A DNA stretch of 64,000 nt, from the NCBI GenBank assembly GCA_044221725.1, contig JBGAON010000001.1, forward strand, positions 806,954 to 870,953, in the 5' to 3' direction. The notes under the pieces are model-generated. The model was not told the DNA's origin, ran no database searches, and was given only the letters and a program-made list of their open reading frames with translations. Position 1 is the stretch's first letter, and the number at the start of each line of letters is the position of its first letter. Source of the DNA: Elusimicrobiota bacterium. Lineage in GTDB: Bacteria; Elusimicrobiota; Elusimicrobia; F11. Both the position numbers and the translations under genes were made by a program. This document shows positions 37,843-53,661 of this stretch, piece by piece.

Positions 37843-38819
37843 TGAATGTTTTGATTGCAAAAGAGTTGAAAGACACTCTCAAGCCGGAACTCAATCGACT
37901 CAACGAAAGGTTGGAGTCGTTGGCGTCGTCTTCGGACGGGTTTCTCGGGAGTCTAAAGTCGTATGTGTTGCTCGGCTCCGGAAAACGGGTGCGGCCCGCG
38001 CTGGTGATGCTAAGCGCGATGTTGGGATCCGCGGACGCCGAAAGCGTGCAAACGGTTTCCATGGCGGTTGAGCTCATTCATATCGCCACGCTCGTGCATG
38101 ATGACGTGATTGATAAAGCGGTGCTCCGCCGCAACCGCAAAACGGTTGCGAGCGAACACGGCGTGGATGCGGCGGTTCTTCTCGGGGACCATGTTTTTAC
38201 CTACGCTTTCGAAAAGGTTGCCGATCTCAATCATCCTCAGATTTTGAAACTCTTGGCACGTTCGACGTCGATCATGTGCGCCGGCGAAATTGATCAACTG
38301 AAGAAACGTTTTCAATTTGATTTGACCGAAGCCGAGTATTTCTCGTTTCTCGAGAAGAAAACCGCTTCGCTGTTCGGTTCGTCTGCGCGCTCGGGTGCCA
38401 TTTTGGCGGGTCAAAGTGAGAAGATTCAGTTGGCGTTGGAACGGTTTGGTCTCAATTTGGGTCTGGCGTTTCAGATTACGGACGATTTGCTTGATCTGAC
38501 CGGCGAAGAATCCGTGGTTGGCAAGACCCTGCGAACCGATCTCATGAACGGAAAAATGACGCTTCCTCTTATTTATTACCGTGACCATTTGACGTCCGCA
38601 AACGAATCGAAAGAATTTTTCGACAACTTGCAGCATCCCAACGGCCACTTGGCCGGTGTCGTCGATCAAATGAAGAGTTCGGGTGCGATTCAATACGCGG
38701 AAAATATCGCAACGCGCCATCTCGAATCGGCGCTGAACGAACTTGAAAACTTACCGGCCGGAACACCACGCGAACTTCTGACGTCGCTCGCGGAGATGCT
38801 GCAGACGCGAAAGGCTTAG
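37842..38819 (+). CDS. Trans-polyprenyl diphosphate synthase
   Basis: GKRVRP, LVHDDVID..RR, KKTA, FQITDDLLD. Confidence 0.93.
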   Translation: MNVLIAKELKDTLKPELNRLNERLESLASSSDGFLGSLKSYVLLGSGKRVRPALVMLSAMLGSADAESVQTVSMAVELIHIATLVHDDVIDKAVLRRNRKTVASEHGVDAAVLLGDHVFTYAFEKVADLNHPQILKLLARSTSIMCAGEIDQLKKRFQFDLTEAEYFSFLEKKTASLFGSSARSGAILAGQSEKIQLALERFGLNLGLAFQITDDLLDLTGEESVVGKTLRTDLMNGKMTLPLIYYRDHLTSANESKEFFDNLQHPNGHLAGVVDQMKSSGAIQYAENIATRHLESALNELENLPAGTPRELLTSLAEMLQTRKA

Positions 38820-38822
38820 TTT

Positions 38823-39533
38823 CTGTCAGTCGAAGACGTCGACAGACCTCAACCCCTCACCGAACACCTCACCGAGCTTCGTCGTCGGATTATCTCGTGC
38901 CTTCTTTGGGCGCTTCTTTTCTCGACGATTAGCTACTTTTTCGTCGGTCCTATCCTCGATTGGTTGTCGCGTCCCATTGGCCAGTTTGTGTTCACTGGGC
39001 CCACCGAAGCGTTCTTCATCCATATCAAAGTCGCAATGACCGTGGGCGGTATTCTTGCTCTTCCTGTTTGGATTTATCATCTGTGGCGTTACATCGGGCG
39101 CGCGCTTGGCGTTAAAGAACGGACTCTGGTCGTCGGTATTTTGCCCTGGGGAATTGCTCTGTTCTTTTTGGGAATGGCGATTGCGATTTTCGTGGTTGTG
39201 CCAGCCGCCATGCGGTTTCTATTGAGTTACAGTTCTCCGACGCTCAAGCCGATGATCTCGCTCAGCGAATATCTTTCGTTTTTATTTTGGATGATTCTTG
39301 GCTTTGGCCTCTTCTTTCAGATGCCGCTCGTGATTGTGACGTTGGCGCGTTTCGGACTTGTGGACCCTGCGACGTTCGTGAAATACCGTCGGCATATGAT
39401 CGTTGCAATTTTTGTTGCGGCCGCTGCCTTAACGCCGGGCCCCGATATCGTGAGCCAGTTGGTGCTCGCAATTCCTTCTTACCTGTTGTTTGAAATCTCT
39501 CTGCTCATAGCGAAGCGCGTTTACCGCCGTTGA
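38823..39533 (+). CDS. tatC: Twin-arginine translocase subunit TatC, probable CTG start
   Basis: In-frame PLTEHLTELRRR upstream of the tracked TTG at 38964; PTEAF, FQMP, TPGPD, LFEIS. Confidence 0.88.
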   Translation: MSVEDVDRPQPLTEHLTELRRRIISCLLWALLFSTISYFFVGPILDWLSRPIGQFVFTGPTEAFFIHIKVAMTVGGILALPVWIYHLWRYIGRALGVKERTLVVGILPWGIALFFLGMAIAIFVVVPAAMRFLLSYSSPTLKPMISLSEYLSFLFWMILGFGLFFQMPLVIVTLARFGLVDPATFVKYRRHMIVAIFVAAAALTPGPDIVSQLVLAIPSYLLFEISLLIAKRVYRR

Positions 39534-39646
39534 TACCACGCCACAGATTTTCATCGGCATTTCGCATATTTCTAGAACTCTGCAGCGTTCGAACCGTATT
39601 GGCTAAGCGCACGCCTTAAAGAACCGCAACAACAGGAGGTCCTCGC

Positions 39647-40624
39647 TTGGCGAGGTCGCATCGACGCCCTAACTATCGTGGCCTGGGATTTAAAGGCTCG
39701 TTAACCCTTGTTGCTGTTCTGTTCTCTTCCTCTGTTTGCTCGGCTGCCGGTACCGATGCTGCGTCGTTCCTGAATATTCCTACCGGCGCTGGACCCGCCG
39801 CTCTTGGCGGCGCTTACACGGCGCTTGCTACCGACGCCTACGCTCCGGTCTACAATGCGAGCGGGCTCGCATTCCTTCCGTCATTGCAATTGGCGGGATT
39901 GCACGTGAACTATTTGGAATCCATTAACTACGAGTTTTTGAGTTACGTCCATCCGTTGGGGTCCGAGCAGCGATCGTACGGAGGCATCGGCGCTTCGGTT
40001 CAGTATCTGACCACCGGAGAGATTGATGAGTTCGATCATTTTGGTGCGAAACGTGGAAGTTTCTCGGGTCGATCCGCCTCGTACAATCTGAGTTATGGTT
40101 TTCCAATCTCAAAAGCATGGGGAATCGGTGCCACAGGGAAAATTATTTCCGCATCGATTCAGGGTGTGTCTGCCAATGCAACGGCTGCCGACATCGGCAC
40201 AATTTATCAGCTGATGAAAACTTGGAATGTGGCTGCGGCGTACGCGAATTGGGGTTCCTCTCTTAGGTTCCTAGGAGATTCCGAACGATTGCCCGAAGCA
40301 TTCCATTTGGCAACGTCGTTTTCCGTCTCGCATCGTAGTTTGTTCACGATCGAAGAAGTTTTTCCAAAAAGCGATTCGGCAAGTTTCCGTGGTGGGTTGC
40401 AGTTTGAGCCAATTGAATTTCTGCGGTTGCGCGTTGGATATCGCACGGACACCGTGAAGCAAGCAAACGGAATGACGGGTTTCACCGCCGGAGCGGGGTT
40501 CGTTTTGTACGGGCAAGAATTGGCCTACGCGTGGATTCCGTACGGTGATCTGGGCGACACGCACTATTTTTCATTGCTGATCAATTTTGGTCAAACGGGA
40601 AACGTTGGAGTTCCCCGTGATTAA
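39647..40624 (+). CDS. PorV/PorQ-family (FadL-like) outer-membrane beta-barrel
   Basis: Signal peptide, FLNIP.GA..AALGGAY.A...DA....YN.SGLA hatch pattern, amphipathic strands and YAW.PYGDLG.THYFSL end. Confidence 0.75.
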   Translation: MARSHRRPNYRGLGFKGSLTLVAVLFSSSVCSAAGTDAASFLNIPTGAGPAALGGAYTALATDAYAPVYNASGLAFLPSLQLAGLHVNYLESINYEFLSYVHPLGSEQRSYGGIGASVQYLTTGEIDEFDHFGAKRGSFSGRSASYNLSYGFPISKAWGIGATGKIISASIQGVSANATAADIGTIYQLMKTWNVAAAYANWGSSLRFLGDSERLPEAFHLATSFSVSHRSLFTIEEVFPKSDSASFRGGLQFEPIEFLRLRVGYRTDTVKQANGMTGFTAGAGFVLYGQELAYAWIPYGDLGDTHYFSLLINFGQTGNVGVPRD

Positions 40625-43600
40625 GCGGCTTGCGTCGTGTGCCGCAGCGACAACGGCATTGTTGATTTTGATTTCGCCCATGCGATTGTCCGCAAGCTGC
40701 GGAGTGCCCGTGAATCTCATCGAATCGGAAAATTGCCTTCCAGGCAATCCCGCGAGCGAATGGGACATTCCCACGAAAGATGCCGGAGATGTATCCATTC
40801 AAGGATTCGCGACCGACATGAGCGTCAATAAAGGGACGTCGGTTTCCTTTAAAATCAAAACGTCGGCCACGGCTTACACGATTGATATATATCGGATGGG
40901 CTATTACGCCGGAAATGGCGCACGCAAAGTGGCATCTTTGTCGCCATCGGTGGATCTTCCGCAGGCGCAGCCCGAATGTTTGTTTGAGGCGGCAACGCAA
41001 CTGGTGGATTGCGGAAACTGGAATGTGTCGGCAACGTGGCCCGTGCCCAACAATGCGGTGTCTGGAATTTATTTTGTGAAGTTGACCCGCACCGATACCG
41101 GCGGAGCGAGCCATATTCCGTTTGTTGTGCGGGATGACGGCAATCATTCCGATATTCTTTTCCAAACATCGGACACGACCTGGCAGGCGTACAACAATTA
41201 CAACGGCTACAGTTTGTACGTGGCGCCCACACCAACACCCGGGCGTGCGTACAAAGTGAGTTACAACCGGCCGTTCGCTACGCGGACGACGCATTCGTCT
41301 TATCTGTTCACGCACGAATATCCAATGGTGCGTTTTCTCGAGCGCAACAGTTTCAACGTGACCTACTTTACAGGAATTGACAGCGACCGCCATGGTGCAT
41401 CGATTTTGAATCACCGCATTTTCATGTCGGTTGGGCATGATGAATATTGGTCTGGTCCACAACGAACACGCGTTGAAGCCGCCCGCGGTGCTGGCGTGCA
41501 TCTCATGTTTTTAAGCGGGAACGAAATTTTTTGGAAAACGCGCTGGGAGCCCAGCACGGACGGCACGTCGACACCGTATCGAACGCTGGTTTGTTACAAA
41601 GAAACGCACGATGGAAAGATTGATCCAGTGGACCCGCCGACATGGACCGGTACATGGCGCGACAAACGATTTAGTCCGCCCGCCGATGGTGGTCGGCCGG
41701 AAAACGCGCTGAGCGGCAACGCTTACAGAGTGGATTCGTTTCGAAACGATCCTATGACGGTGGGTCCGGAAGATGGAAGGCTTCGTTTTTGGAGAAATAC
41801 ATCGGTTGCGGCAGCGAGTTCGCCCACCACGTTTCCAGAAATTCTTGGCTACGAATGGGACGAACCATGGGACAACGGCGTTCAGCCAGCGGGGCTAATT
41901 TATCTTTCCTCATCGGCCATTTCTGTTCCAAAGAGGCTCATTGATGAAGGGAACAATTATGTGCCCGCTATGGCCGTTCATCACTTAACGCTTTACAGAA
42001 CAAACGGGTCCATTGTGTTCGGTGCAGGAACCATGCAGTGGCCCTGGGGACTTGATAGCCAACATGATCACGGTGGGGGAACCGGTGCCGATGCGAGACT
42101 GCAACAAGCAACGGTGAATCTTTTGGCGGACATGGGCAGTCAGCCGGGTTCTCTTCAACCGGGGCTTGTTTCCGCCTTTGGATCGACGGATTCTGTGCCG
42201 CCGGTTTCCGTTATCACGTTTCCCGCAAATGGCGCGACACTTTCGCTCGGTGTTCCGATCACAATTTCGGGAACGGCGTCGGATAGCGGAGGCGGTGTCG
42301 GGGGCGTCGAAGTTTCCGTCGATAATGGAAGCTCGTGGCATCCGGCAAGCGGCCGGGGAACGTGGACCTACGCATGGACACCGACCGGAACAGCGAGCGT
42401 CACGATTCGTAGCCGCGCCGCTGACGACAGTCTCAATGTCGAAACCCCGTCGGCTGGCATCACGGTGAATGGAACATCGGGGGCAGGGCCGCAGGCGCAT
42501 ATGATTTGGCCCAACACCGTACCGCCGTCGAACAATTTCTCTTCAGATGCAAATTCGCTTGAAGTTGGTGTGAGGTTTCGGTCGGATGTTGCTGGCAAAA
42601 TTACCGGTGTGCGTTTTTACAAGTTCAGCGCGAACACGGGGCCGCACGCGGGCCATTTGTGGACGTCGTCCGGTGCGCTTCTTGCCTCGGTTTCTTTTGC
42701 CTCCGAAACCGCGTCCGGCTGGCAGCAAGCAAACTTCGCGACGCCAGTTTCAATCAACGCCAACACGTCTTATGTGATTTCTTATTTCACGACCAAAGGT
42801 TATGCCGTCACGAAAAATTATTTTACGAGCAGCGGCGCCGATTCTCCGCCGCTTCACGCGCTTCAAAACGGCATTGATGGTCCCAACGGTTTGTACGCGT
42901 ACGCGGCGTCGAGCACGTTTCCAAGCAACAGTTACGCGCAAAGCAATTATTGGGTCGATGTCGTATTTTCGACCGTTTCGGATAATCCACCTCCTCCTGC
43001 GCCCCCGCCGCAAAGCAACGTCATTTGGCCCTCGGGGGGACCAGCGCCGTTTGGTTACTCCACGGAATCAAACGCCGTTTCGTTGGGGATTAAGTTTCAG
43101 TCGGATGTGGCCGGCTCGGTCACGGGCGTCCGTTTCTATAAGTTCAGCATCAGCACCGGAACCCACACGGGGCATTTGTGGACGAAGAGTGGCACGCTGC
43201 TCGCTTCGGTCACCTTCACGTCCGAAACGGCGTCGGGCTGGCAGCAGGCAAAATTTTCCACACCGGTCGCCATCCATGCCAATACCACCTATGTGGTTTC
43301 TTATTTCACGACGAAAGGCTACGCAGTAACGAAGAATTATTTCACAAACGCCGGCGTCGATTCTCCGCCGCTCCACGCTTTAAAAAGCGGCGCCGATGGT
43401 GCCAACGGTGTTTATATTTACGCGCCGTCGAACGCGTTTCCCACGAACAGTACCTCGCAAAGCAATTATTGGGTGGACGTTATGTTCACCTCGTTTGAGG
43501 GGGGAGGCGGTGCTGGGCTTGCTTTGAAACCGAGCGCACCGATGGGGTTGGGGGGGGCAACCGGCTCTCTGAGGGTCTTTCCAAACCCGTGGCGTTCCGA

Positions 43601-43829
43601 TCGAGATGCGGGGTTTGATATCACGTTTGACGGGCTACAGACCAACAGTTCTGTGAAAATCTATACGATTTCTGGCCAATATTTGAAAACTCTGGGGGCA
43701 CCCGCCGGCATCGCGTCGTGGAACCGGACGAACGACCATGGGGAGGCGGTCGGTTCGGGTATATATCTGTATTTTATTACCGGAGACGGGGGGGAGAAAA
43801 TGAAGGGAAAAGTCGCAATAATGAATTAA
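40617..43829 (+). CDS. Large secreted protein: dimethylformamidase-beta-like domain, Ig-like domain, two DUF4082 domains and a T9SS/FlgD-like C-terminal domain
   Basis: IYRMGYYAG, TWQAYN, GHDEYWS, GYEWD; DUF4082 motifs GVRFYK...SGWQQA...NYWVDV (twice); CTD VFPNP..KIYT.SG..W...GSGIYLY..K.AI. Confidence 0.8.
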   Translation: MIKRLASCAAATTALLILISPMRLSASCGVPVNLIESENCLPGNPASEWDIPTKDAGDVSIQGFATDMSVNKGTSVSFKIKTSATAYTIDIYRMGYYAGNGARKVASLSPSVDLPQAQPECLFEAATQLVDCGNWNVSATWPVPNNAVSGIYFVKLTRTDTGGASHIPFVVRDDGNHSDILFQTSDTTWQAYNNYNGYSLYVAPTPTPGRAYKVSYNRPFATRTTHSSYLFTHEYPMVRFLERNSFNVTYFTGIDSDRHGASILNHRIFMSVGHDEYWSGPQRTRVEAARGAGVHLMFLSGNEIFWKTRWEPSTDGTSTPYRTLVCYKETHDGKIDPVDPPTWTGTWRDKRFSPPADGGRPENALSGNAYRVDSFRNDPMTVGPEDGRLRFWRNTSVAAASSPTTFPEILGYEWDEPWDNGVQPAGLIYLSSSAISVPKRLIDEGNNYVPAMAVHHLTLYRTNGSIVFGAGTMQWPWGLDSQHDHGGGTGADARLQQATVNLLADMGSQPGSLQPGLVSAFGSTDSVPPVSVITFPANGATLSLGVPITISGTASDSGGGVGGVEVSVDNGSSWHPASGRGTWTYAWTPTGTASVTIRSRAADDSLNVETPSAGITVNGTSGAGPQAHMIWPNTVPPSNNFSSDANSLEVGVRFRSDVAGKITGVRFYKFSANTGPHAGHLWTSSGALLASVSFASETASGWQQANFATPVSINANTSYVISYFTTKGYAVTKNYFTSSGADSPPLHALQNGIDGPNGLYAYAASSTFPSNSYAQSNYWVDVVFSTVSDNPPPPAPPPQSNVIWPSGGPAPFGYSTESNAVSLGIKFQSDVAGSVTGVRFYKFSISTGTHTGHLWTKSGTLLASVTFTSETASGWQQAKFSTPVAIHANTTYVVSYFTTKGYAVTKNYFTNAGVDSPPLHALKSGADGANGVYIYAPSNAFPTNSTSQSNYWVDVMFTSFEGGGGAGLALKPSAPMGLGGATGSLRVFPNPWRSDRDAGFDITFDGLQTNSSVKIYTISGQYLKTLGAPAGIASWNRTNDHGEAVGSGIYLYFITGDGGEKMKGKVAIMN
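42501..43489 (+). repeat. Tandem intragenic duplication of the DUF4082 module (about 42501-42970 and 43020-43489)
   Basis: Near-identical blocks about 519 bp apart, for example GATTCTCCGCCGCT and CAAAGCAATTATTGGGT in both copies. Confidence 0.85.
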
Positions 43830-43937
43830 AAAAGTTGAGTTTTTCGAAAAGTTAGATAGAATTTTGCTCGTCGGAGCAGTCCCACCCCTAACCCCCGTCT
43901 CAGTTTCTGATGCATTATCCTCTTATCAAAGGAAATC

Positions 43938-45602
43938 ATGGACAACACTGGCTCGTTTACATCGGAATCGCCTGCCCAAATTGTTGGCGATCTGTTTCGC
44001 AATCTCGGCAAATCGCCGGGGCATCGAAATAAAGAAACCGAACATCGAAGGCACCCGCGAACGTCTTATATGCGCAACGTTTCACTATCGGCGAAACGTC
44101 TTGGCAAAAACGTGGTGGCCCGCGCATTCGATCTCTCGCGAACTGGAATTTGTGTGGAGATTAAGAATGGGCCGATGTTGGAGATGGGTTCCGATGTCGT
44201 CGTAAAGTTGGCCAAATTTGAAAAGTTGATCGGTTCGATTGCGTTGGACGGTCCTCACAAAATAAAAGCGGTGGTTGTTCGGTCGTGGCGTCTCGATGCG
44301 GATACCTGGGTCTATGGGCTTCGTTTCGCGAATTTGCTCGAAGAACGAAAGAAAATTAATTCACAGAAAATCCAACGGTTCCTGTCCGTATCGCTCGTGT
44401 TGATAGGAATAGCGATTATTCTTTCGCTAAAGATTTCCGATCTGCGTTGGTTTTGGTACGCCCCGGTTTACCGGATTTATGGAATCTTGGGTGGTGTTTT
44501 CTTTCTCAGTCGCGCGCTCCTTTCTCTCGTGTACCGTGAGCCCAAAGACGCGGGCTATTTGCCTCCAGTGACCGTCGTTATCTCGGTAAAAAACGAAGAG
44601 GCGCATATTGCCGAAACCGTGAAACGCGTGTTCGACGTTCGCTATCCGTTGCACAAACTCGAACTCATCGTTATTGATGATGGATCCACCGATAATACGT
44701 GGGCTGCGCTTCAGAAAGTCCAACCGGAATATCCACGATTGCGTCTGTTTCAATTTCCTACGAATCTTGGCAAACGCCACGGAATGGCGCTCGGTGCCCG
44801 CGAAGCAACCGGCGAGATTCTCGTGTACGTCGACTCCGATAGCTACGTGGAAGCGGAGGGTATTTATCGTCTCGTTCAGCCGTTCGCGGACAGACGCATC
44901 GGCGCGGTGGCTGGCCACACACGCGTGATTATCGAGAAGAAAAATCCGATCTCGAAAATGGAATCGGTTCGATATTTTATTTCTCATCAGTTTTTTAAGA
45001 CCGCAGAGAGTGTGTTCGGAACAGTAACCTGTTGCCCCGGCGCGTTTTCGGCCTATCGTCGCAGCGCTGTGTTGCGCGTTCTACCAAAGTGGTTGGACCA
45101 AACGTTTCTCGGTGTCAAATCAACGTTTGGGGACGACCGCAGCTTGACGAATTTTGTGCTGCGCACCCACCGCGTTGTTTATCATGCCGGTGCCATCTGC
45201 GTCACGTACGTTCCCACAACGTGGAAGCAATTTTTCACGCAACAATTGCGGTGGAAGAAATCGTGGGCGCGAGAAGCGACCGTTGCATCGCGCGTCATGC
45301 TTAAAAAGCATCCCGTTGCCGTAATTTCGTTTTACTTGAGCACCGTGATCACGTTTTTATCTCCGTTGATTTTCCTTCGCGCGGTCGTCATCGGACCACT
45401 GCTTTATTCGCAGTCGTGCGTGCCTTATTTGTTGGGCCTTCTTCTTGTGTACCTGTTCTTGTGTTTGTTCTTTCTGTGCCAGACCAACGAGAAACATTGG
45501 TACTACGGACTTCTGTTTGCGGCGAGTTATTTAACAATCCTCTGCTGGCAAACCTATTGGGCCACGTGCACGATCAATAAGACGCAATGGGGGACAAGAT
45601 GA
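43938..45602 (+). CDS. PilZ domain fused to a processive GT2 synthase (hyaluronan synthase/NodC-like)
   Basis: PilZ motifs RRHPR and DLSRTG; two TM helices; DDGSTD, YVDSD, CCPGAFSAYR, GDDRSLTN, QQLRWKKSW; C-terminal TM helices and WGTR end. Confidence 0.88.
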   Translation: MDNTGSFTSESPAQIVGDLFRNLGKSPGHRNKETEHRRHPRTSYMRNVSLSAKRLGKNVVARAFDLSRTGICVEIKNGPMLEMGSDVVVKLAKFEKLIGSIALDGPHKIKAVVVRSWRLDADTWVYGLRFANLLEERKKINSQKIQRFLSVSLVLIGIAIILSLKISDLRWFWYAPVYRIYGILGGVFFLSRALLSLVYREPKDAGYLPPVTVVISVKNEEAHIAETVKRVFDVRYPLHKLELIVIDDGSTDNTWAALQKVQPEYPRLRLFQFPTNLGKRHGMALGAREATGEILVYVDSDSYVEAEGIYRLVQPFADRRIGAVAGHTRVIIEKKNPISKMESVRYFISHQFFKTAESVFGTVTCCPGAFSAYRRSAVLRVLPKWLDQTFLGVKSTFGDDRSLTNFVLRTHRVVYHAGAICVTYVPTTWKQFFTQQLRWKKSWAREATVASRVMLKKHPVAVISFYLSTVITFLSPLIFLRAVVIGPLLYSQSCVPYLLGLLLVYLFLCLFFLCQTNEKHWYYGLLFAASYLTILCWQTYWATCTINKTQWGTR

Positions 45603-46867
45603 CGCCCGACGTCGACGCGATACCCGAACAACCAAGCTATATTGTTCATTGGTTATTTCTTGTCGCGCTTGGTTTTGCGGCGTGGCATTTTTACCCACGA
45701 ATTGTTGGTTCTCCTTTCACGCGCGTGCAACGCTCCGCATCGATCGCCGAAGTGGCTGATTATTTTCTAATCCTTAAATTTCCAGAGGTTGCGACCATTG
45801 ATTCGGCGGCGGTAAAGACCGCTCGACAACAAACAGCCGGCTGGATTCAGGCGATGCTTGATCACGGTTACCACCCGATGTTGTTGTCCGATGTGATGGA
45901 GCAACGGAAAGTGGGAAAAAAACTTCCCGAGAAAGCGGTGGTTATACTGTTTGATCCCGGGTACCGATCCACCTATGACGCGCTCAGTCCCGTGTTCGAG
46001 AGCAAGCGTCTCCCTGTTGTTTGGCTCACGCGTTCCGAGGGCCTAGAGGATTACGATTTGCGTTATTTGAGCAAACACCTTTATCTGCAACTGCACACCG
46101 ATCGCGGTTGGGACACCGGCATGTCGCGCGCGGATCAACGAACGTTTTTCCTTAACGTGCAAGACGGCGAAGAATTCGGGCGACCGTACGTGTGGGCCGA
46201 CGGAATCAATTGGCGGGGAAAGAACTTTTTGACGGAGAAGTCCGGCTTGGAGCGGTTGGCTGTTCGCAGCTATTGGACGAACGACGATTTACTGAAACAC
46301 CTCAACGCCGAAGTGCCAACGGCCTCGACCTGTTACTTGGTGGCCGAATCCGTAAACAATCGTCTCAAAGGGTTGAACGTTCCGTTGGTGCATGGAAACG
46401 ATGTCGCCGCGTTCGATCTTTCCACGGCGCGGGACAAGCGTCTGAGAACGGTGTTCTGGAAATCAACCGAACGCGTTGAAGATTTTAATCTGGACGTTTC
46501 TCTGCAAGAACTCGAAGGTGAATTCTGGATGTTGATTCGATCCGATGAAGACCTAAGCAATGGCGTGCGTATCGGGTTTTCTAAGGATCTCGTTTCCGTG
46601 GAAGAAATCATCGGAGGGCGCTCGAAACAGATTGCCCTTGGGCCCGTTGTTTGGGATTCAAAAAAACCTTTTGCGGCTTCGGTCTCGGTGCAAAATTCGC
46701 GTCTGGATATTTTCGTTCGCGGGAAGTCGTTGATTCGTATCCCGATTCCAGCGGCCGGTCATGCGCATCGCTCCAAGTTCGGCGTCATGCTGTTTCACCG
46801 CGTAAGGGGCGCGGCTCAAGTGAAAAACGTTTCGTTAAAATTTACACCCACGAAAGTCGCCGAATAG
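45599..46867 (+). CDS. Membrane-anchored protein with a degenerate NodB/CE4-like domain and a C-terminal beta-sandwich
   Basis: N-terminal TM. GYHP...LPEKAVVILFDPGY mirrors the CE4 motif 1 region (FDDG) but with D changed to P, and no HxxxH is seen. ATGA overlap with the synthase. Confidence 0.6.
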   Translation: MTPDVDAIPEQPSYIVHWLFLVALGFAAWHFYPRIVGSPFTRVQRSASIAEVADYFLILKFPEVATIDSAAVKTARQQTAGWIQAMLDHGYHPMLLSDVMEQRKVGKKLPEKAVVILFDPGYRSTYDALSPVFESKRLPVVWLTRSEGLEDYDLRYLSKHLYLQLHTDRGWDTGMSRADQRTFFLNVQDGEEFGRPYVWADGINWRGKNFLTEKSGLERLAVRSYWTNDDLLKHLNAEVPTASTCYLVAESVNNRLKGLNVPLVHGNDVAAFDLSTARDKRLRTVFWKSTERVEDFNLDVSLQELEGEFWMLIRSDEDLSNGVRIGFSKDLVSVEEIIGGRSKQIALGPVVWDSKKPFAASVSVQNSRLDIFVRGKSLIRIPIPAAGHAHRSKFGVMLFHRVRGAAQVKNVSLKFTPTKVAE

Positions 46868-46889
46868 CGCCGATCTTTTGCCTCAATCG

Positions 46890-49800
46890 ATGAGAAAGCT
46901 CTCCCTGGTTTTTGCTCTGCTGCTGTTTGGTCGCACGTTGGCGGCAGCCGAGAATTCGTCGGTAACGTCCGATCTCCAAGCGCAGGCGCTCAACGCGTTC
47001 AAAGCGGGTGATTACAAAAAATCGGCGAATCTTTACCGAACGCTCGCAGCGGAAAATCCAAACGATGCCCAGATACTTCGGGATTTCATGTGGGCGTGTT
47101 GGAACGCCGGGAATCCCCAGGAAACGATCGCGGCTGGAAAAAAGATTCTTGCGATCGAACCGTCCGATGTGGAAACGCTGAATCTCGTGGGGAAAGCGTA
47201 TCAAGCCTCGGGCGATCGAAAGAGCGCGTTGCAGTCGTTTAAACGCGTCGCCGATGCGCACCCCAACAGTGTTTCAGCGAAAGTATCGTTGATTCGTTCG
47301 CAGATTGAGTTGGCCGACCTCGCGAGCGCCGAACGCACGCTGCAAGCATTGGATTCGGATATCCCTTCAAAAGGGGCGTTGCGCGAAAAGATCGATGGGT
47401 TATGGAAAGCGTTGGCACGAGCGTATTCCGAGTCCGGTCGATCGGAAAAAGCGATTGCGATTTATCAGAAGATTATGCGCGTGTCAGCGAGCAACACGCA
47501 GGTGCAAATTGCGTACGCGCGTTTGCAGACCGATCAGAAAAAATACGATGAAGCCGAACGGGTGTTAAAGAGAATATTGGTCACCTCGCCCGATGCGTTG
47601 CCGGTCTATCCCAAATTGGCCGCCGTGCAATTTTTGAAAAAAGATTTTGCGTCCTCGGTTGACAACTGGAACGCCGCGATTCGCTCGTTTCCTGACAAAG
47701 TCGAATACAAATACAAAAGAGGGTTGGCTCTTTATTTCAATAAAAACTTCGACGAAGCGCTCCAGCAGATGGTGAATTTGCTGGCGGATCCGGAATGGGG
47801 ACGAAAAGCGGCCGATTTTCTTTACGACGACGCGTTTGCTCAAGGGGAAAATACGAAAGCGGCGAAATATCTCGCCGACAGCCTTGAAACTCTCGAATAC
47901 ACTCCGGAAGATCAGCAGCGTTACATCCGATTGTCGAACGCCTATGAGCGGCAAAACGATTATAAAAAAGCGGAGCAGGCGCTCGATGCGGCGCTGGACC
48001 ACTTTCCGGACGATGGCGCCGTGCGATGGTCAATGGCGTCTCTTTACCTCGAAACGAATCGGCTCGGCAAAGCCGTTCCATTCATGAAAGACATTCTGCA
48101 GCGAAATCCGAACGCATCGCACATCATTTACGCGCTAGTGGATTCTCAAGTCACGTTAGGAAACCGTGCTGACGCATTGCGTATTTTGCAAAGCGAACGC
48201 CGCGTGGACCCAACAAATCCATTTTTGATGCTGCGCGAAGCAGAACTTCTGTATCTCACGGACCAGCGGGAAAAAGCTCGCGCGATGTTGACCGCCTGGT
48301 TACAGGAAAAGGGAGATGGCCCGGTTCTTCCCGTCGCGTTGTATCACGGACTTACACCGTACGACCGCGACGGCATGTTGGCGCACCAGCAACATCACCG
48401 CGCTTCCGTTTTCGACGAGCACATGCGGGCGCTTCACGATGCCGGATACACGCCCGTAACCGTGCCCGAAGCGTTTCGGTGGGTCAAAGGAGAATTCGAA
48501 TTACCGAAGAAAGCGATTCTTATTTCATTCGATGACGGCCGACTGGATAGCTTTCAGAACGCTGATCCGATCCTCAAAAAATACGACATGAAAGCCACCA
48601 TGTTTGTCATTGGGCAGAACGCTGACCGCAATTTGCCGAACTACGCCAATTGGAAAGAACTGCGCGAGTATCAGAAAACCGGTCGGTGGAATTTCGAAGC
48701 GCACACCGATCATGGTCATTCCTACATTCCGATCACGAAAGAGGGACACAAAGGTTTGTTCTTATTGAACAAAAAGTGGCTTGAGAGTGAAGGCCGGCTT
48801 GAAACGCGTCAAGAATGGATTGACCGAATCGACGCGGATCACGACCGCATCAAGCGGAAAATGCTCACGGAATTGAAAGTGAACGTAGAGGGCTTTGCGT
48901 TTCCGGAGGGGAATTACGGTCACATCTATATTCCGAACGCGAAAGAATCCGCGGACGTGAACATGTCGGCCGCGCGAAACTATTTTGATCTGTCGTTTTT
49001 TCAGGAGTCCGAAGGTCTCGGAATCAATGTTCGCTCCCGCGATCCAGCGATGTTGAATCGGTTCGAGCCATCTCCCGATTGGACGGGTAGCGATTTGCTT
49101 CGGCGAATTTCCGATAACATTCCCGCAAACAAAATGCGCGCGACGCTGCTGCATTGGGCGATTTGGGAAGGACGTCTGAACGAAGCGAACGCGTGGCTAA
49201 ACGAGTTGCGCAAGGGAGGCGCGTCGCCGGCGTTGCTTCTCAGCGAGCACGCACGAATTTATGCGTCGCACGGTAATCTCGTGAAAGCGCGGGGATTGGG
49301 AAAGGATGCCGATACCGCGAAAGGGAACAGATCCATCGCGAATGATGACAACGAGCAAATCGTGCGGGACGCGAGCCGACCAGAATACAGCGCGTACGGA
49401 AGAATGTTTGAAGACAAGGTTCATCGCCGCAACAAATTGCTTGAACAGTCGTTTATGTTCCCGGCCTTTGGTGATTTTCGGTTCACGCTTCTGCAGCGGC
49501 TCGGAAACTATGCCGAACGGAACGTTCCGCACGTTAGTGAAAATGCGTGGGGAGCAAGAGTTGGTGTGCCGCTTGGGCTGCGCCACAATATTTCCGTGGA
49601 AGGAATGCAGAGCGTCTTTAATGCGCACGTGGATAATCAGACCTCGGGTCAAGCTGCGTTTCGCTCCCATTGGTCGGATCGTTTCACGACCGAAGTAAAT
49701 GCGGCGCGCCAACCGCTGTTCTTTGCGCAGGCGTTGTCGCAAAATATTCGACTTCGCACTCTGCGCTTGGGCGGATCCTATCGCGAGCGGGACGATTGGG

Positions 49801-50291
49801 AATTTGGTGGCGAAGCGCGCGCCAGCCATTATTCCGATACCAATGATCGCTTCGATGGACAATTTAACGCTGCCATGGGACTCGGCGCACGAAAGCGTAC
49901 GCGTCTGATGTACGTGCTGTCGGGAATGACGAACGATCAAACCAGCCCGTTTTATTACAGCCCGGAGCATTTGTTTGAAAACAGTATTGGGTTAAGTCAG
50001 ATCGTGCCGTTCCACGGCGCTTATAAGCTGACGCTTACGTATTTGCCGGGGTACGGTCAGGAATCGGACGTGTCATCGCATTTCATTCAGAACTTCAAGG
50101 TTGGTTTGGTCTGCCACTGGACCGACGCCACATCGCTCGATCTGGATTTTCAATATCAAGAAACACCCAGCTATTACAGTCGTTCAGCGAACGCACGATT
50201 TGTTCATCGCTTTGGCTTGAAGCGGCTGAGCGCGGAAGCAGCGACGTCGATTCAGCGTTCGCCGGAAGAGCTGCAAACACAGAACGATTAA
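46890..50291 (+). CDS. TPR-polysaccharide deacetylase-beta-barrel fusion (PgaA/PgaB-like export and modification protein)
   Basis: Signal peptide, about 450 aa of TPR-like helices, CE4 motifs LYHG, ISFDDG, EAHTDHGH and FAFPEG, then a C-terminal beta-rich region containing YYSP. Confidence 0.8.
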   Translation: MRKLSLVFALLLFGRTLAAAENSSVTSDLQAQALNAFKAGDYKKSANLYRTLAAENPNDAQILRDFMWACWNAGNPQETIAAGKKILAIEPSDVETLNLVGKAYQASGDRKSALQSFKRVADAHPNSVSAKVSLIRSQIELADLASAERTLQALDSDIPSKGALREKIDGLWKALARAYSESGRSEKAIAIYQKIMRVSASNTQVQIAYARLQTDQKKYDEAERVLKRILVTSPDALPVYPKLAAVQFLKKDFASSVDNWNAAIRSFPDKVEYKYKRGLALYFNKNFDEALQQMVNLLADPEWGRKAADFLYDDAFAQGENTKAAKYLADSLETLEYTPEDQQRYIRLSNAYERQNDYKKAEQALDAALDHFPDDGAVRWSMASLYLETNRLGKAVPFMKDILQRNPNASHIIYALVDSQVTLGNRADALRILQSERRVDPTNPFLMLREAELLYLTDQREKARAMLTAWLQEKGDGPVLPVALYHGLTPYDRDGMLAHQQHHRASVFDEHMRALHDAGYTPVTVPEAFRWVKGEFELPKKAILISFDDGRLDSFQNADPILKKYDMKATMFVIGQNADRNLPNYANWKELREYQKTGRWNFEAHTDHGHSYIPITKEGHKGLFLLNKKWLESEGRLETRQEWIDRIDADHDRIKRKMLTELKVNVEGFAFPEGNYGHIYIPNAKESADVNMSAARNYFDLSFFQESEGLGINVRSRDPAMLNRFEPSPDWTGSDLLRRISDNIPANKMRATLLHWAIWEGRLNEANAWLNELRKGGASPALLLSEHARIYASHGNLVKARGLGKDADTAKGNRSIANDDNEQIVRDASRPEYSAYGRMFEDKVHRRNKLLEQSFMFPAFGDFRFTLLQRLGNYAERNVPHVSENAWGARVGVPLGLRHNISVEGMQSVFNAHVDNQTSGQAAFRSHWSDRFTTEVNAARQPLFFAQALSQNIRLRTLRLGGSYRERDDWEFGGEARASHYSDTNDRFDGQFNAAMGLGARKRTRLMYVLSGMTNDQTSPFYYSPEHLFENSIGLSQIVPFHGAYKLTLTYLPGYGQESDVSSHFIQNFKVGLVCHWTDATSLDLDFQYQETPSYYSRSANARFVHRFGLKRLSAEAATSIQRSPEELQTQND

Positions 50292-50297
50292 TCTTTT

Positions 50298-51326
50298 TTA
50301 ACGAAGATTGTCCCAAAATGCTGCGTCGCCGCTGCCAATTCTCCAAAGTCCGATTTGGGTAATGCCCAGACGCTGCAGTTGCTTTACCTTTTCTTCCAAG
50401 CTCCGGCGATTTTCAAACCAGATCACATGATTCTTACTGCCGTCGTTGTACCGGAACCACGGCGATTGGCTGGGGCCATCCCATTCCATGCGAATGCGGT
50501 TTGTTTTCACAATATCCATGGCCGTATCGAAATCGATGATTTTTCCTTTGTCGCCGTCGCTCCAGTCGACGCCGTTTAACACCAGCGCGACACTTAATTT
50601 CTCTTTCGGTATTTGTGTGAGCGCAAATTTTGCAATGTCCGCGGTCCAGGGCGCGGGAGCCACTGGCCCCGGATCTCCCCCCGGATAATGGAGATAGTAC
50701 GCCATGATTTTGACGAGATCCGCTGATTGCGCAATGGCGCGCCAGTCCATTGCGCCCGCGCCATTCCAGGTTACTTCGGTTGTTTTCGGTTCAACAACAA
50801 CCGACAGCAGTTTTTTCTTTTTGTGGGCGGCATCGGCCAGTTTTGCGATGAAATTCGAAAAGTCCTCCCGATCGCGCCTGTCCAAGTTCTCATAATCGAT
50901 GTCGATGCCGTCAAATCCGTCGGCGAAATTTAACAGCGCTGCAATATGATCCGACGTTTTTGCTGGGTCGGAAACGATCGAGTGGACAACATTGGGATCC
51001 TTTAGTTTTGTTTTTTTTCCATCAACAACATCATTAACCGCGGTGAGGAAAATTTTTGCAGATGGTGCGTTCCGCCGAATGTCTCTCAGTGTGTTTGGTA
51101 GGGACGCAAACGCGGGTGCAAGATCTCCCGATGCATTGAAGTGAACAGCGAACACGCACAAAATATTCAAATCCTTTTCGTACGTTTTCGCGGCGCGGTC
51201 AACTTTGTTTGAGTCCCAGTAGATGTGCCAGCTGTTGTACCGGAGAGAGGGGGCGGCAAAAGACAGGCCGTGAGAAAGCATGATCGTCATCCCTGCAAAA
51301 GCGAGCCTGCGGATGTCGAGCCGCAT
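50298..51326 (-). CDS. Glycoside hydrolase family 18, secreted
   Basis: FDGIDIDYE (DxxDxDxE), MAY, WFEN, GLWRIG; signal peptide. Confidence 0.88.
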   Translation of the reverse strand: MRLDIRRLAFAGMTIMLSHGLSFAAPSLRYNSWHIYWDSNKVDRAAKTYEKDLNILCVFAVHFNASGDLAPAFASLPNTLRDIRRNAPSAKIFLTAVNDVVDGKKTKLKDPNVVHSIVSDPAKTSDHIAALLNFADGFDGIDIDYENLDRRDREDFSNFIAKLADAAHKKKKLLSVVVEPKTTEVTWNGAGAMDWRAIAQSADLVKIMAYYLHYPGGDPGPVAPAPWTADIAKFALTQIPKEKLSVALVLNGVDWSDGDKGKIIDFDTAMDIVKTNRIRMEWDGPSQSPWFRYNDGSKNHVIWFENRRSLEEKVKQLQRLGITQIGLWRIGSGDAAFWDNLR

Positions 51327-51335
51327 TGGTGTTCC

Positions 51336-52643
51336 TTAGGCTTTAACGACGTTCGGTGCCGGCTCCAAATAAACGCCGCGCGTATCAACGATGAGTTGCG
51401 CGCGTTCTTTCAGCATTTTGTAGTCGAACGCATCATGATTGGTAGCGATCAACACGCAATCGTATTTCGCGACGTTTTCGGCCGTTAACGGCACGCTTTT
51501 TAAATCGAATTTGTGGCGGCGCATTTTTGGAAACGTCGGGAAGAACGGATCCGAATAGTCCATTTGCGCGTTTTTCTCTTTCAAAATTTCCATAAGTTCA
51601 AGGGACGGCGACTCCCGGACATCGTCCACGTTCTTTTTATACGCAATACCGAGCACGAGAATTCGGCTGGCGCGCAAAGATTTTTTTCGTTCATTGAGCG
51701 CATCCATCATCTTGCTGACGACCCAATGGGGCATCATTGTGTTGATTTCCCCGGCCAGCTCGATAAACCGCGTGTGCAATCCGTATTCACGCGCCTTCCA
51801 TGTCAAATAGAACGGGTCGACGGGAATGCAATGGCCGCCAATGCCGGGGCCCGGGTAATAGGGAGTGAATCCAAAGGGTTTTGTGGAGGCGGCGCGAATC
51901 ACTTCATGGATGTCGATGCGCATTTTGTCAGCGACGATTTTCATTTCATTCACAAGGCCGATGTTCACGACGCGGTGAATGTTTTCGAGGAGCTTCGTCA
52001 ATTCCGCCGCGCGGGTGGTGCTGACCGGAACCACTTTATTAATGACGCTGCCGTAGATCGCGAGACCCGCTTTCAAACATTCGGGTGTGTCGCCGCCGCA
52101 GATCTTCGGAATGGTTTCGGTCGTGAAATTCGGATTGCCTGGGTCTTCGCGTTCCGGTGAATGCACCAGGAAAATATCTTTGCCGATCGTAAACCCTTTG
52201 GCCTCAATTCGGGGGCGAAGTTCTTCGTCGGTTGTGCCCGGATAAGTGGTGCTCTCAAGCGATACAAGTTGTCCTTTTCTTAGGTGCGGGGCCAACGCGT
52301 CCATGGTGTCGGTCACAAACGACAAATCGGGTTCGCGATACTTATTTAACGGTGTCGGAACGCAGATGATCAGCGCATCGGCTTCTTTCGCCCGGGAGAA
52401 ATCCGTGGTGGGAACAAAGCCGTGTTTAACGGCCTCGGCAATACGTTCGGCTTTGATGTGATCAATATAGGATTTGCCTTGGTTTATCAGCGTGATCTTT
52501 TCTTGATCGATATCGAAGCCGAGCACCGGGAAGCCCACTTTCGAAAACCGCAGGCAAAGCGGCAATCCCACATACCCAAGTCCAATAATGCCAACAACAG
52601 CTTTTTTGTTTTCAACTTTCTTTAAGAAATTTTCGAGTTCCAT
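51336..52643 (-). CDS. wbpA: Nucleotide-sugar 6-dehydrogenase, WbpA-like (UDP-GlcNAc to UDP-GlcNAcA)
   Basis: [56 protein letters not shown]. Closely resembles Pseudomonas WbpA as recalled. Confidence 0.82.
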
Positions 52644-52707
52644 AATGCGTGCGATCCTAATTTTTTTTCGACGCGTTGTCGACGGAAAACCCTGCAGAAA
52701 CAAGCGA

Positions 52708-52735
52708 TTGCCTATTTTCGGCATTGTTGTATAAT
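52708..52735 (+). promoter_or_regulatory. Probable rpsB promoter
   Basis: TTGCCT, 16-bp spacer, TATAAT. Confidence 0.55.
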
Positions 52736-52833
52736 TCCAAACCTCATTTGGGGGGCGGTCCTATGCCTCCTGTTGGTTTGATGTTCAATCCATCCCGTGA
52801 GCAATCTAAAAATCCAAGGAGTTTAAAAAGTTA

Positions 52834-53661
52834 ATGTCTTCTAATACGACGTCCACGTCACAAGCCAGCACCCCCGCCGCATCCGCCGAACCCGTCATCT
52901 CAATGAAGTCGCTGCTCGAAGCCGGTGTCCATTTCGGACATCAAACGCACCGTTGGAACCCGAAAATGGCGCGTTACATCTACGGCAGCCGAAACAACAT
53001 CCATATCATTGACCTTCAGAAAACCGTTCGTGAGCTGAAAAAAGCTTACCTGTTCATTAAAAGCATCGCCGCGTCGAACAAAACAGTTTTGTTCGTTGGA
53101 ACAAAGAAGCAGGCCCAGGATGCAATTATCAATGAATCAAAGCGGTGCACCTCTGCCTATGTTGCGGAGCGTTGGTTGGGTGGAACGTTGACCAATTTTG
53201 AAACCATCCGGAAATCCGCGAAACGTCTTCAAGAACTTGAAGGCATGAAAGAAAAGGGCGTGTTCGATCTTCTCTCGAAGAAAGAACGTGCGATGCGCGA
53301 AAAAGACATCAAACGGCTCGCGAAATCTCTCGCCGGTATTAAAGATATGCTCGATTTGCCGGGGTGTATCTTCATTATCGATCCATCCAATGAAATGACG
53401 ACAATTGCCGAAGCCCGCCGCATTGGAATTCCAATCGTTGCTGTTTGCGACACGAACACCGATCCGGATTTGATCGATTACCCGATTCCTGGAAACGACG
53501 ACGCCATCCGCGCGATTCGTTTGATTACCGGTCTCATGGCCGATGCCGTGATCCAAGGTCGTCAACAAGCGGAACAAGAATCCACCCAAGTTCAACAAAC
53601 CGAAGAGACGGCGATGGCCGCCGCGATGGGCGATGTCGTGCCCGCAACGGAGAACGTATGA
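52834..53661 (+). CDS. rpsB: 30S ribosomal protein S2
   Basis: [31 protein letters not shown]. Confidence 0.98.

Follow-up and report, generated by a model that had tools for sequence, protein, structure and literature searches.

We analysed a window of 64,000 nucleotides from the genome of an Elusimicrobiota bacterium (GenBank assembly GCA_044221725.1, contig JBGAON010000001.1, forward-strand positions 806,954 to 870,953) and found at window positions 43938–52643 a locus that belongs to a real, widespread and apparently undescribed system for synthase-dependent exopolysaccharide secretion. The conserved core of this system is a synthase of glycosyltransferase family 2 (GT2), a dead CE4–lectin membrane protein and a single-chain fusion of tetratricopeptide repeats (TPRs), a CE4 deacetylase domain and a barrel; a GH18 hydrolase and a nucleotide-sugar dehydrogenase are frequent accessories of this three-gene core. 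The synthase resembles hyaluronan synthases (HAS) and carries a PilZ domain. Judging from the sequences, the chances seem evenly balanced that the operon makes and secretes an acidic polymer of the N-acetylglucosamine/N-acetylglucosaminuronic acid (GlcNAc/GlcNAcA) type and that its HAS-like enzyme is gated via PilZ by cyclic di-GMP (c-di-GMP). A broader proposal, for which our confidence falls a shade short of even, is that of a new c-di-GMP-gated secretion class in more than 10 phyla, with a synthase family that would be the sister of class I HAS, a GlcNAc/GlcNAcA or poly-GlcNAcA product and export through the one-chain TPR–deacetylase–barrel protein.

Organization of the locus

All five open reading frames (ORFs) are intact and lie in the order and at the positions that an earlier first-pass annotation of this DNA had given. 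Three genes are on the + strand: the PilZ-GT2 synthase (43938–45602, 554 aa), whose true start is possibly up to ~30 codons downstream (the alignment of relatives begins at residue 33), the membrane protein (45587–46867), with the second ATG at 45599 as probable start and an overlap with the synthase stop, and the TPR–CE4–barrel protein (46878–50291, 1137 aa, probable start ATG 46890). On the − strand follow the GH18 gene (50298–51326, 342 aa) and the dehydrogenase gene (51336–52643). The converging stops of the TPR and GH18 genes are separated by 6 bp, and the dehydrogenase stop is 9 bp from the GH18 start. The GC content of the locus resembles that of the remainder of the window. An Rfam scan of 38800–53000 gave 0 matches, and scans for promoters and terminators found no more than expected by chance (5 vs 6.5 and 11 vs 15.6, respectively). 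Metatranscriptome contigs from one study span the genes and the flanks equally and are thus no proof of transcription.

A second, paralogous locus is found on the same contig at about 642.8–650.6 kb, with all genes on one strand and without GH18. Its PilZ-GT2, membrane protein and TPR–CE4–barrel protein are 50%, 25% and 33% identical to those of the window, and its dehydrogenase is broken by a frameshift near 643.8 kb, either real or an assembly error. Since the three-gene order recurs in 13 named phyla and in this second locus, the arrangement is not due to chance. The wider order at the paralogous site (contig 639869–652944) is secreted lectin-like cargo, PorV-like gene, dehydrogenase, PilZ-GT2, membrane protein and exporter; a second GlmS copy follows the exporter on the opposite strand.

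Domains and active-site motifs of the synthase

Pfam analysis of the synthase yielded a PilZ domain at residues 36–137 (44043–44348, + strand; PF07238, E 6e-7, above cut-off), a predicted c-di-GMP sensor, in addition to the GT2 domain. The enzyme is of the membrane-embedded processive GT2 type with DxD, catalytic D and QxxRW; GDDRSLTN, QQLRWKKSW and a terminal WGTR are present, as is the DSD of class I HAS. An AlphaFold2 model (pLDDT 90.7) displays an N-terminal beta-barrel, two helices, a GT-A core and three long C-terminal helices. The best match among solved structures was chlorovirus HAS (E 4e-26), with Xenopus hyaluronan synthase also among the best. BLASTP scores were 171 bits for a Bacillus HasA candidate, 129/126 for NodC, 99 for PgaC, 94 for IcaA and 35 for BcsA; identity to HasA is only 32%, and about 27–32% to class I hyaluronan synthases. 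The best NCBIfam model was NodC at 159 bits (TIGR04242, cut-off 550), followed by PgaC at 124 bits (cut-off 422). Like the streptococcal-type HasA, the chain ends at WGTR, which is also the chain end in the Bacillus HasA candidate and in a Lactococcus plasmid glycosyltransferase (GT); chlorovirus HAS is 104 residues longer.

Relatives were the best 80 of at least 564 and the best 80 of at least 546 matches from two collection scans; locus counts refer to 91 genome-derived loci (80 from one scan plus 11 non-duplicate) with minimum flank lengths, a few genomes giving two. In a reference alignment, R345 and K354 of the synthase (44970–44999, + strand) correspond to R247 and R256 of chlorovirus HAS, two residues that passages of a review call critical for coordination of glucuronic acid (GlcA) (PMC12346304); the HAS structure paper, in the part consulted, describes the WGTR loop as essential and the GDDR helix as lining the carboxylate pocket (PMC11750622). 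Among 92 family cores, each of at least 330 aa, R345 is found in 91, K354 in 92 and WGTR in 92. These positions lay outside the search patterns; conservation of GDDRSL and QQLRWKKS, which were search patterns, was left out of the evidence. Position 345 is Glu in NodC, PgaC and IcaA. The R256-equivalent position is Lys, not the Arg of HAS, in 92/92 cores, a conservative change; as K at 354 occurs in PgaC too, R345 alone discriminates. NodC further has GEDR and WLSR where the synthase has GDDR and WGTR. The first-pass annotation had spoken of HAS/NodC-type motifs in the synthase, a description that we refine to HAS-like. A HAS-like rather than NodC-like enzyme favours a uronate-containing product over a chitin-like one. 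Identification as a NodC chitooligosaccharide synthase was rejected (159 vs 550 bits, with E345, GEDR and WLSR all different), as was identification as PgaC (124 bits vs the cut-off of 422, and a position outside the PgaC clade in trees).

The PilZ motifs are RxxxR (R37, R41) and DxSxxG (D65–G70); R37, R41 and G70 are invariant in all 71 aligned close relatives. The genome has 14 GGDEF and 10 PilZ matches. A PilZ-like N-terminus is present in 46 of 84 relatives (0/16 in Actinomycetota, 4/12 in Pseudomonadota), and c-di-GMP gating is therefore not universal in the family. The earlier description of a c-di-GMP-gated synthase applies to this copy by its PilZ motif only, and about half of the family is without PilZ.

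Phylogeny of the synthase family

We computed a tree of 28 family members and 12 reference rows (quick search; references without streptococcal HAS, vertebrate HAS and Alg8; long-branch warning for BcsA and a haloarchaeal GT). The family, including one viral-contig protein, comes out as a single clade (SH-aLRT 95); a separate one (SH-aLRT 98) unites HAS, NodC and the Lactococcus GT, and both clades group together apart from PgaC/IcaA (SH-aLRT 99). The synthase does not branch among verified HAS enzymes, its clade standing beside HAS and NodC. In approximately unbiased (AU) tests (26 rows, LG+F+G4, time-cut search, fast constraint trees) grouping of both genome copies with PgaC/IcaA was rejected (p 6e-6) and the family as sister to NodC was not (p 0.12). 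From these tests and the tree, the family appears to be a clade of its own, best placed next to HAS and NodC, and no PgaC. Set against HasA, NodC, PgaC and BcsA, the synthase falls outside the PgaC group, in line with the expectation of the first-pass annotation.

Membrane protein, exporter and hydrolase

The membrane-anchored protein consists of an N-terminal helix, a PgaB-type CE4 fold (Z 15.3, root-mean-square deviation 3.3, 176 aligned; profile E 7e-17) and a C-terminal ConA-like lectin beta-sandwich with Z 14–15 to GH32 C-terminal domains and CBM66. Its catalytic motifs are gone (FDPG for FDDG, no HxxxxH), and by these motifs it is a catalytically dead CE4 with a lectin domain, which bears out the degenerate CE4 membrane protein noted before. 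In this protein class intact CE4 motifs occur in 8 of 71 alignment rows, of which 7 look like truncated or split exporter-type proteins; the one true exception is L223. Atlas matches for the C-terminal domain (0.90–0.91) are leads only, and a pertussis S5 Pfam match (E 0.04) was taken as chance.

The secreted exporter combines TPRs, a CE4 domain (E 4.5e-16) and a PgaA barrel (PF21197 E 5e-6, slightly below cut-off; TIGR03939 E 2.6e-28). The CE4 domain is inserted at residues 482–744 (48321–49109, + strand), is PgaB-like and has intact FDDG, HTDHGH and FPEG motifs; among relatives the DD is kept in 86/86 and both His in 72/86. The PgaB-type deacetylase and PgaA-type porin domains are homologous, below the equivalog cut-offs and fused in another way. 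One chain would accordingly serve as both modifier and exporter.

The GH18 protein (Pfam E 2.6e-21) has a signal-peptide-like N-terminus, and its closest solved relatives are of the YdhD/YaaH group. The DGIDIDYE motif is intact, and the enzyme is predicted to be active, as the earlier placement of a GH18 hydrolase beside the system would have it. DxE is retained in 74 of 79 linked GH18 domains; the gene adjoins the exporter in 25/27 cases, 21 of them convergent as in the window. The GH18 mechanism requires an N-acetyl sugar, and GH18 is not known as a usual hyaluronidase family. The hydrolase domain of PgaB itself has a GH18-like fold, so that GH18 alone does not exclude poly-N-acetylglucosamine (PNAG) as the product.

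Conservation and distribution

Of 401 genomes of the phylum, 24 contain a match to the synthase with E 1e-40 or lower, and among the matches listed the closest titled relatives of the window are Elusimicrobiota. At non-actinobacterial loci a CE4-like gene adjoins the synthase in 65/69 cases and the TPR–CE4–barrel gene is present in 42/47, GH18 in 24/47, the dehydrogenase in 11/36 and both accessories in 5/36. The fixed five-gene set proposed in the first-pass annotation was not found: GH18 and dehydrogenase occur together in only those 5 of 36 well-flanked loci, and one congener (G282) keeps the dehydrogenase alone. GlmS was near the synthase in only 4/36 loci. Actinomycetota, which have no outer membrane, carry the dehydrogenase in 14/16, GH18 in 14/15 and the barrel in 0/13 loci. 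On a Paenibacillus plasmid the order is CE4, dehydrogenase, PilZ-GT2, CE4-like gene, GH18. Databases label the synthase relatives 'hyaluronan synthase' or 'glycosyltransferase', labels under which the system stays hidden. Cultured or named carriers (Holophaga foetida DSM 6591, Methylocaldum sp., Crenothrix polyspora, Paenibacillus cellulositrophicus) make it open to testing now. DNA of the locus is present in wastewater and sludge data sets, environments in which matrix polymers matter for floc formation.

Several variants were seen. Solirubrobacterales (L107–L129) have a version without PilZ or barrel, composed of dehydrogenase, synthase, a fibronectin-III–GH18 fusion and a second GH18. Methylococcales loci (L085, L087, L093, L096, L098) are without PilZ and have in addition repeated CE4–Ig proteins accompanied by a small partner gene; the sheathed filamentous Crenothrix polyspora belongs to these. 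An IMG/VR viral contig of 66.8 kb (L136) encodes a family member without PilZ and with Q at position 345. On a Lactococcus/Enterococcus plasmid (L131:1105–3522) a dehydrogenase of the Ugd type accompanies a HAS-like GT that has R345 and a terminal WGTR and is annotated merely as glycosyltransferase. Two close relatives have large ORFs near the locus (L239:962–10153, 3063 aa; L238:1–5421, >1800 aa).

The linked dehydrogenase

The dehydrogenase was correctly recognized as WbpA-like in the first-pass annotation: it is 65% identical to annotated WbpA, 32% to WecC and 23–27% to Ugd/HasB, and falls into a starred 4-row clade with the WbpA reference, itself known by annotation only. NCBIfam models for UDP-ManNAc (N-acetylmannosamine) dehydrogenase score 248/246 bits vs 217 for TviB, and the best PDB match is Cap5O. 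We assign the protein to the UDP-N-acetylhexosamine 6-dehydrogenases. The 40 linked dehydrogenases all have better scores with WbpA than with Ugd or HasB; in the tree they are all on the WbpA side, spread over several separate subclades. None (0/40) is of the UDP-glucose type, though the same HMM detects UDP-glucose types. Of 31 loci with a dehydrogenase, 21 have it immediately before the synthase and in the same orientation; these are from Elusimicrobiota, Acidobacteriota, Pseudomonadota, Actinomycetota and Paenibacillus. The genome studied here has 5 PF03721 matches, of which both WbpA-like ones are at its two synthase loci, and no match to WbpB or WbpD. In G242 exporter, GH18 and dehydrogenase are kept together at another chromosomal site, and three further genomes carry GlmS and dehydrogenase 10–21 kb upstream on the synthase contig. 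Family-wide, comparison of gene neighbourhoods makes the link between dehydrogenase and system well supported; for the copy in the window membership is likely.

Proposed mechanism and alternative explanations

The proposed pathway would begin with the formation of UDP-GlcNAcA from UDP-GlcNAc by the WbpA-like dehydrogenase, an oxidation of the type described for TviB in passages of PMC8760489. Binding of c-di-GMP to PilZ, for which the motifs and the 14 GGDEF matches are at hand, would activate the GT2 enzyme. This would add both sugars at a single active site and thread the chain through the inner membrane, with R345 and K354 holding the carboxylate. As the last two helices of chlorovirus HAS have no counterpart in the synthase, it would have to form a dimer or use a partner helix; streptococcal HAS is reported to function as a dimer in part of a review (PMC10939387), and by analogy the short synthase may dimerise or borrow a helix from its partner. 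The dead CE4–lectin protein may, by its fold, act as a periplasmic guide like BcsB or Alg44. Partial de-N-acetylation of the chain would then fall to the exporter CE4, and its export to the PgaA-like barrel, as domains and motifs suggest, and GH18 could trim or free stalled polymer.

Several observations weigh against this reading. Only 11/36 non-actinobacterial loci have a dehydrogenase in the flanks retrieved, and the 14 actinobacterial loci with one are close kin. WbpA-like genes occur in 186/401 phylum genomes, and the dehydrogenase found elsewhere in the genome in 23 of 25 genomes tested is for this reason weak evidence. Congener G282 (100% complete) keeps the dehydrogenase between tatC and rpsB with the remaining system genes absent and only short generic CE4 matches, and the orthologue in G148 belongs to a separate sugar cluster of the O-antigen type. 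Lys 354 stands where HAS has arginine, and PgaC likewise has K; PilZ is confined to the 46 of 84 relatives; the CE4 domains and the barrel are closest to PgaB and PgaA. In the time-limited AU tests the entire family as sister to PgaC/IcaA was not rejected (p 0.066), and the family with HAS and without NodC was marginally rejected (p 0.047).

The same machine could make a neutral, partly de-N-acetylated beta-GlcNAc homopolymer, similar to chitin or chitosan, with the dehydrogenase a bystander or serving another glycan. Among NCBIfam models NodC scores best (159 bits vs 124 for PgaC, both far below cut-offs), and it branches within the sister clade; GH18 is linked oftener than the dehydrogenase in diderms (24/47 vs 11/36) and G282 retains the dehydrogenase without the system. 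However, NodC has E where the synthase has R345, GEDR for GDDR and WLSR for WGTR, and in 21 loci from five phyla the synthase directly follows the dehydrogenase; we consider a chitin-like product rather unlikely, though it deserves to be kept in view. That a rearranged Pga system produces ordinary beta-1,6-PNAG seems highly improbable: the CE4 domains do match PgaB/IcaB and the barrel PgaA, the hydrolase of PgaB is GH18-like in fold and a sister relationship of the family to PNAG synthases is not rejected (AU p 0.066), but the synthase reaches 124 bits vs the PgaC cut-off of 422, its active-site motifs are unlike those of PgaC/IcaA, nesting with these enzymes is rejected, and PgaD gave no match in loci or genome (one query, for a small divergent protein).

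Two further explanations accept an acidic chain and differ in the uronate. The enzyme might be a true class I hyaluronan synthase fed with UDP-GlcA by an unlinked Ugd, and partly de-N-acetylated hyaluronan might be exported. Every tested HAS motif is retained, UDP-glucose-dehydrogenase-like genes exist elsewhere in the genome, and the synthase agrees with the Bacillus HasA candidate in length and C-terminus; still, none of the 40 linked dehydrogenases is of the Ugd/HasB type, which the HasA reference has adjoining, identity to HasA is only 32% with placement in a separate clade, and GH18 would be an unusual hyaluronidase. Hyaluronan is thus a decidedly unlikely product. Alternatively the uronate could be N-acetylmannosaminuronic acid (ManNAcA), with an unlinked UDP-GlcNAc 2-epimerase feeding the dehydrogenase and a GlcNAc/ManNAcA or ManNAcA polymer as the result. 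The UDP-ManNAc dehydrogenase models score slightly above TviB (248/246 vs 217 bits), and Cap5O gives the best PDB match. In L042, L047, L049, L228 and L215 the synthase is directly preceded by a WecB-like gene, and one such gene is found elsewhere in the genome of the window. Yet the dehydrogenase is 65% identical to WbpA vs 32% to WecC, WecB comes after a separate TPR and second-GT2 module in the inspected loci, and other loci are without epimerase, which makes ManNAcA a very unlikely choice. On the evidence of the synthase motifs and the linked dehydrogenases, a GlcNAc/GlcNAcA-type chain is our preferred reading, and the product is probably a new acidic polymer.

Neighbouring genes

Upstream of the operon, window positions 39647–43829 hold a PorV-like barrel gene and a gene for a 1080-aa secreted protein with DMFA2_C, Ig, two DUF4082 and a C-terminal domain of the type IX secretion system (T9SS) type. 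Genes of both kinds are numerous in the genome (25 PorV-like, 20 for such cargo), which suggests a T9SS-like route in Elusimicrobiota. The pair is missing from the syntenic site of G282, as is the operon. We rejected PorV-like and DUF4082 genes as parts of the system: they are near the synthase in 6/23 Elusimicrobiota loci and 0/44 others and have many copies in the genome. GH18, CE4 or lectin-like domains are found in cargo proteins that share this C-terminal domain and are encoded beside PorV-like genes (G000:C5:38784–41227, L052, L153, L155, L156, L159), several of them adjoining the synthase; from their domains, these are possibly surface enzymes for the same polymer. In some Elusimicrobiota a second module lies directly upstream of the synthase (L032:8758–11879, L042, L047:1179–6909, L049, L228), with TPR proteins, a different GT2, which we take to resemble NfrB, and mostly a WecB-like epimerase.

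Comparison with known systems

Cellulose, alginate, PNAG and Pel are the products of the known synthase-dependent systems. The Pga system of E. coli (PgaABCD), which is under c-di-GMP control, shares with the locus a GT2 synthase, a PgaB-type CE4, TPRs with a PgaA-like barrel and a linked hydrolase. However, the synthase described here is outside the PgaC group and bears PilZ, and a single query gave no PgaD match; the active CE4 is inserted in the TPR–barrel chain, a dead CE4–lectin membrane protein is added, GH18 stands for GH153 and a UDP-HexNAc dehydrogenase is linked. With the cellulose (BcsABZC) and alginate systems the locus has in common a PilZ-controlled synthase, a membrane-anchored periplasmic carbohydrate-binding partner, a TPR–barrel exporter and a hydrolase, and the alginate system also links a nucleotide-sugar dehydrogenase, AlgD. 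PilZ is C-terminal in BcsA but N-terminal here, the BcsA score is 35 bits, no BcsB match was found, and modifier and hydrolase are of other families. In E. coli NfrABC/WecB a c-di-GMP-controlled GT2 with MshEN is combined with a TPR outer-membrane partner and an amino-sugar precursor enzyme, an epimerase; measured against this description, the present system has PilZ, and the Nfr-like module is a separate unit beside it in some relatives. Rhizobial NodC with NodB, which make chitooligosaccharides, offers a related GT2 clade, a CC motif and a linked CE4, but has E at 345, GEDR and WLSR and no TPR–barrel exporter.

No description of the operon was found in the literature searched, which largely excluded subscription journals, and to this extent the combination is new among known systems, as first proposed. 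The main text of the main survey of synthase-dependent operons, as far as consulted, has no hyaluronan, GH18 or dehydrogenase; the fusions in its passages are of other kinds, and its supplementary operon tables could hold members filed as Pga (PMC7112194). In the portion consulted of DeAngelis and Zimmer (2023, PMC10939387), streptococci, a chlorovirus and vertebrates are the only sources given for class I HAS. The likeness to class I HAS (chlorovirus CvHAS, streptococcal HasA, the Bacillus HasA candidate) covers DSD, GDDR, QxxRW-KS, WGTR, the R247-equivalent arginine, a nucleotide-sugar dehydrogenase alongside and, as in the Bacillus candidate, the WGTR end; N-terminal PilZ, outer-membrane exporter, deacetylase, GH18 and the UDP-HexNAc type of the dehydrogenase set the present system apart. 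If our reading is true, no other large bacterial family would stand closer to HAS and NodC, and the clade could serve to study how two sugars are handled by a single active site. The clade would extend the known systems by a HAS-like enzyme that is under allosteric control and served by a diderm export route, and probably by a charged polymer that is new.

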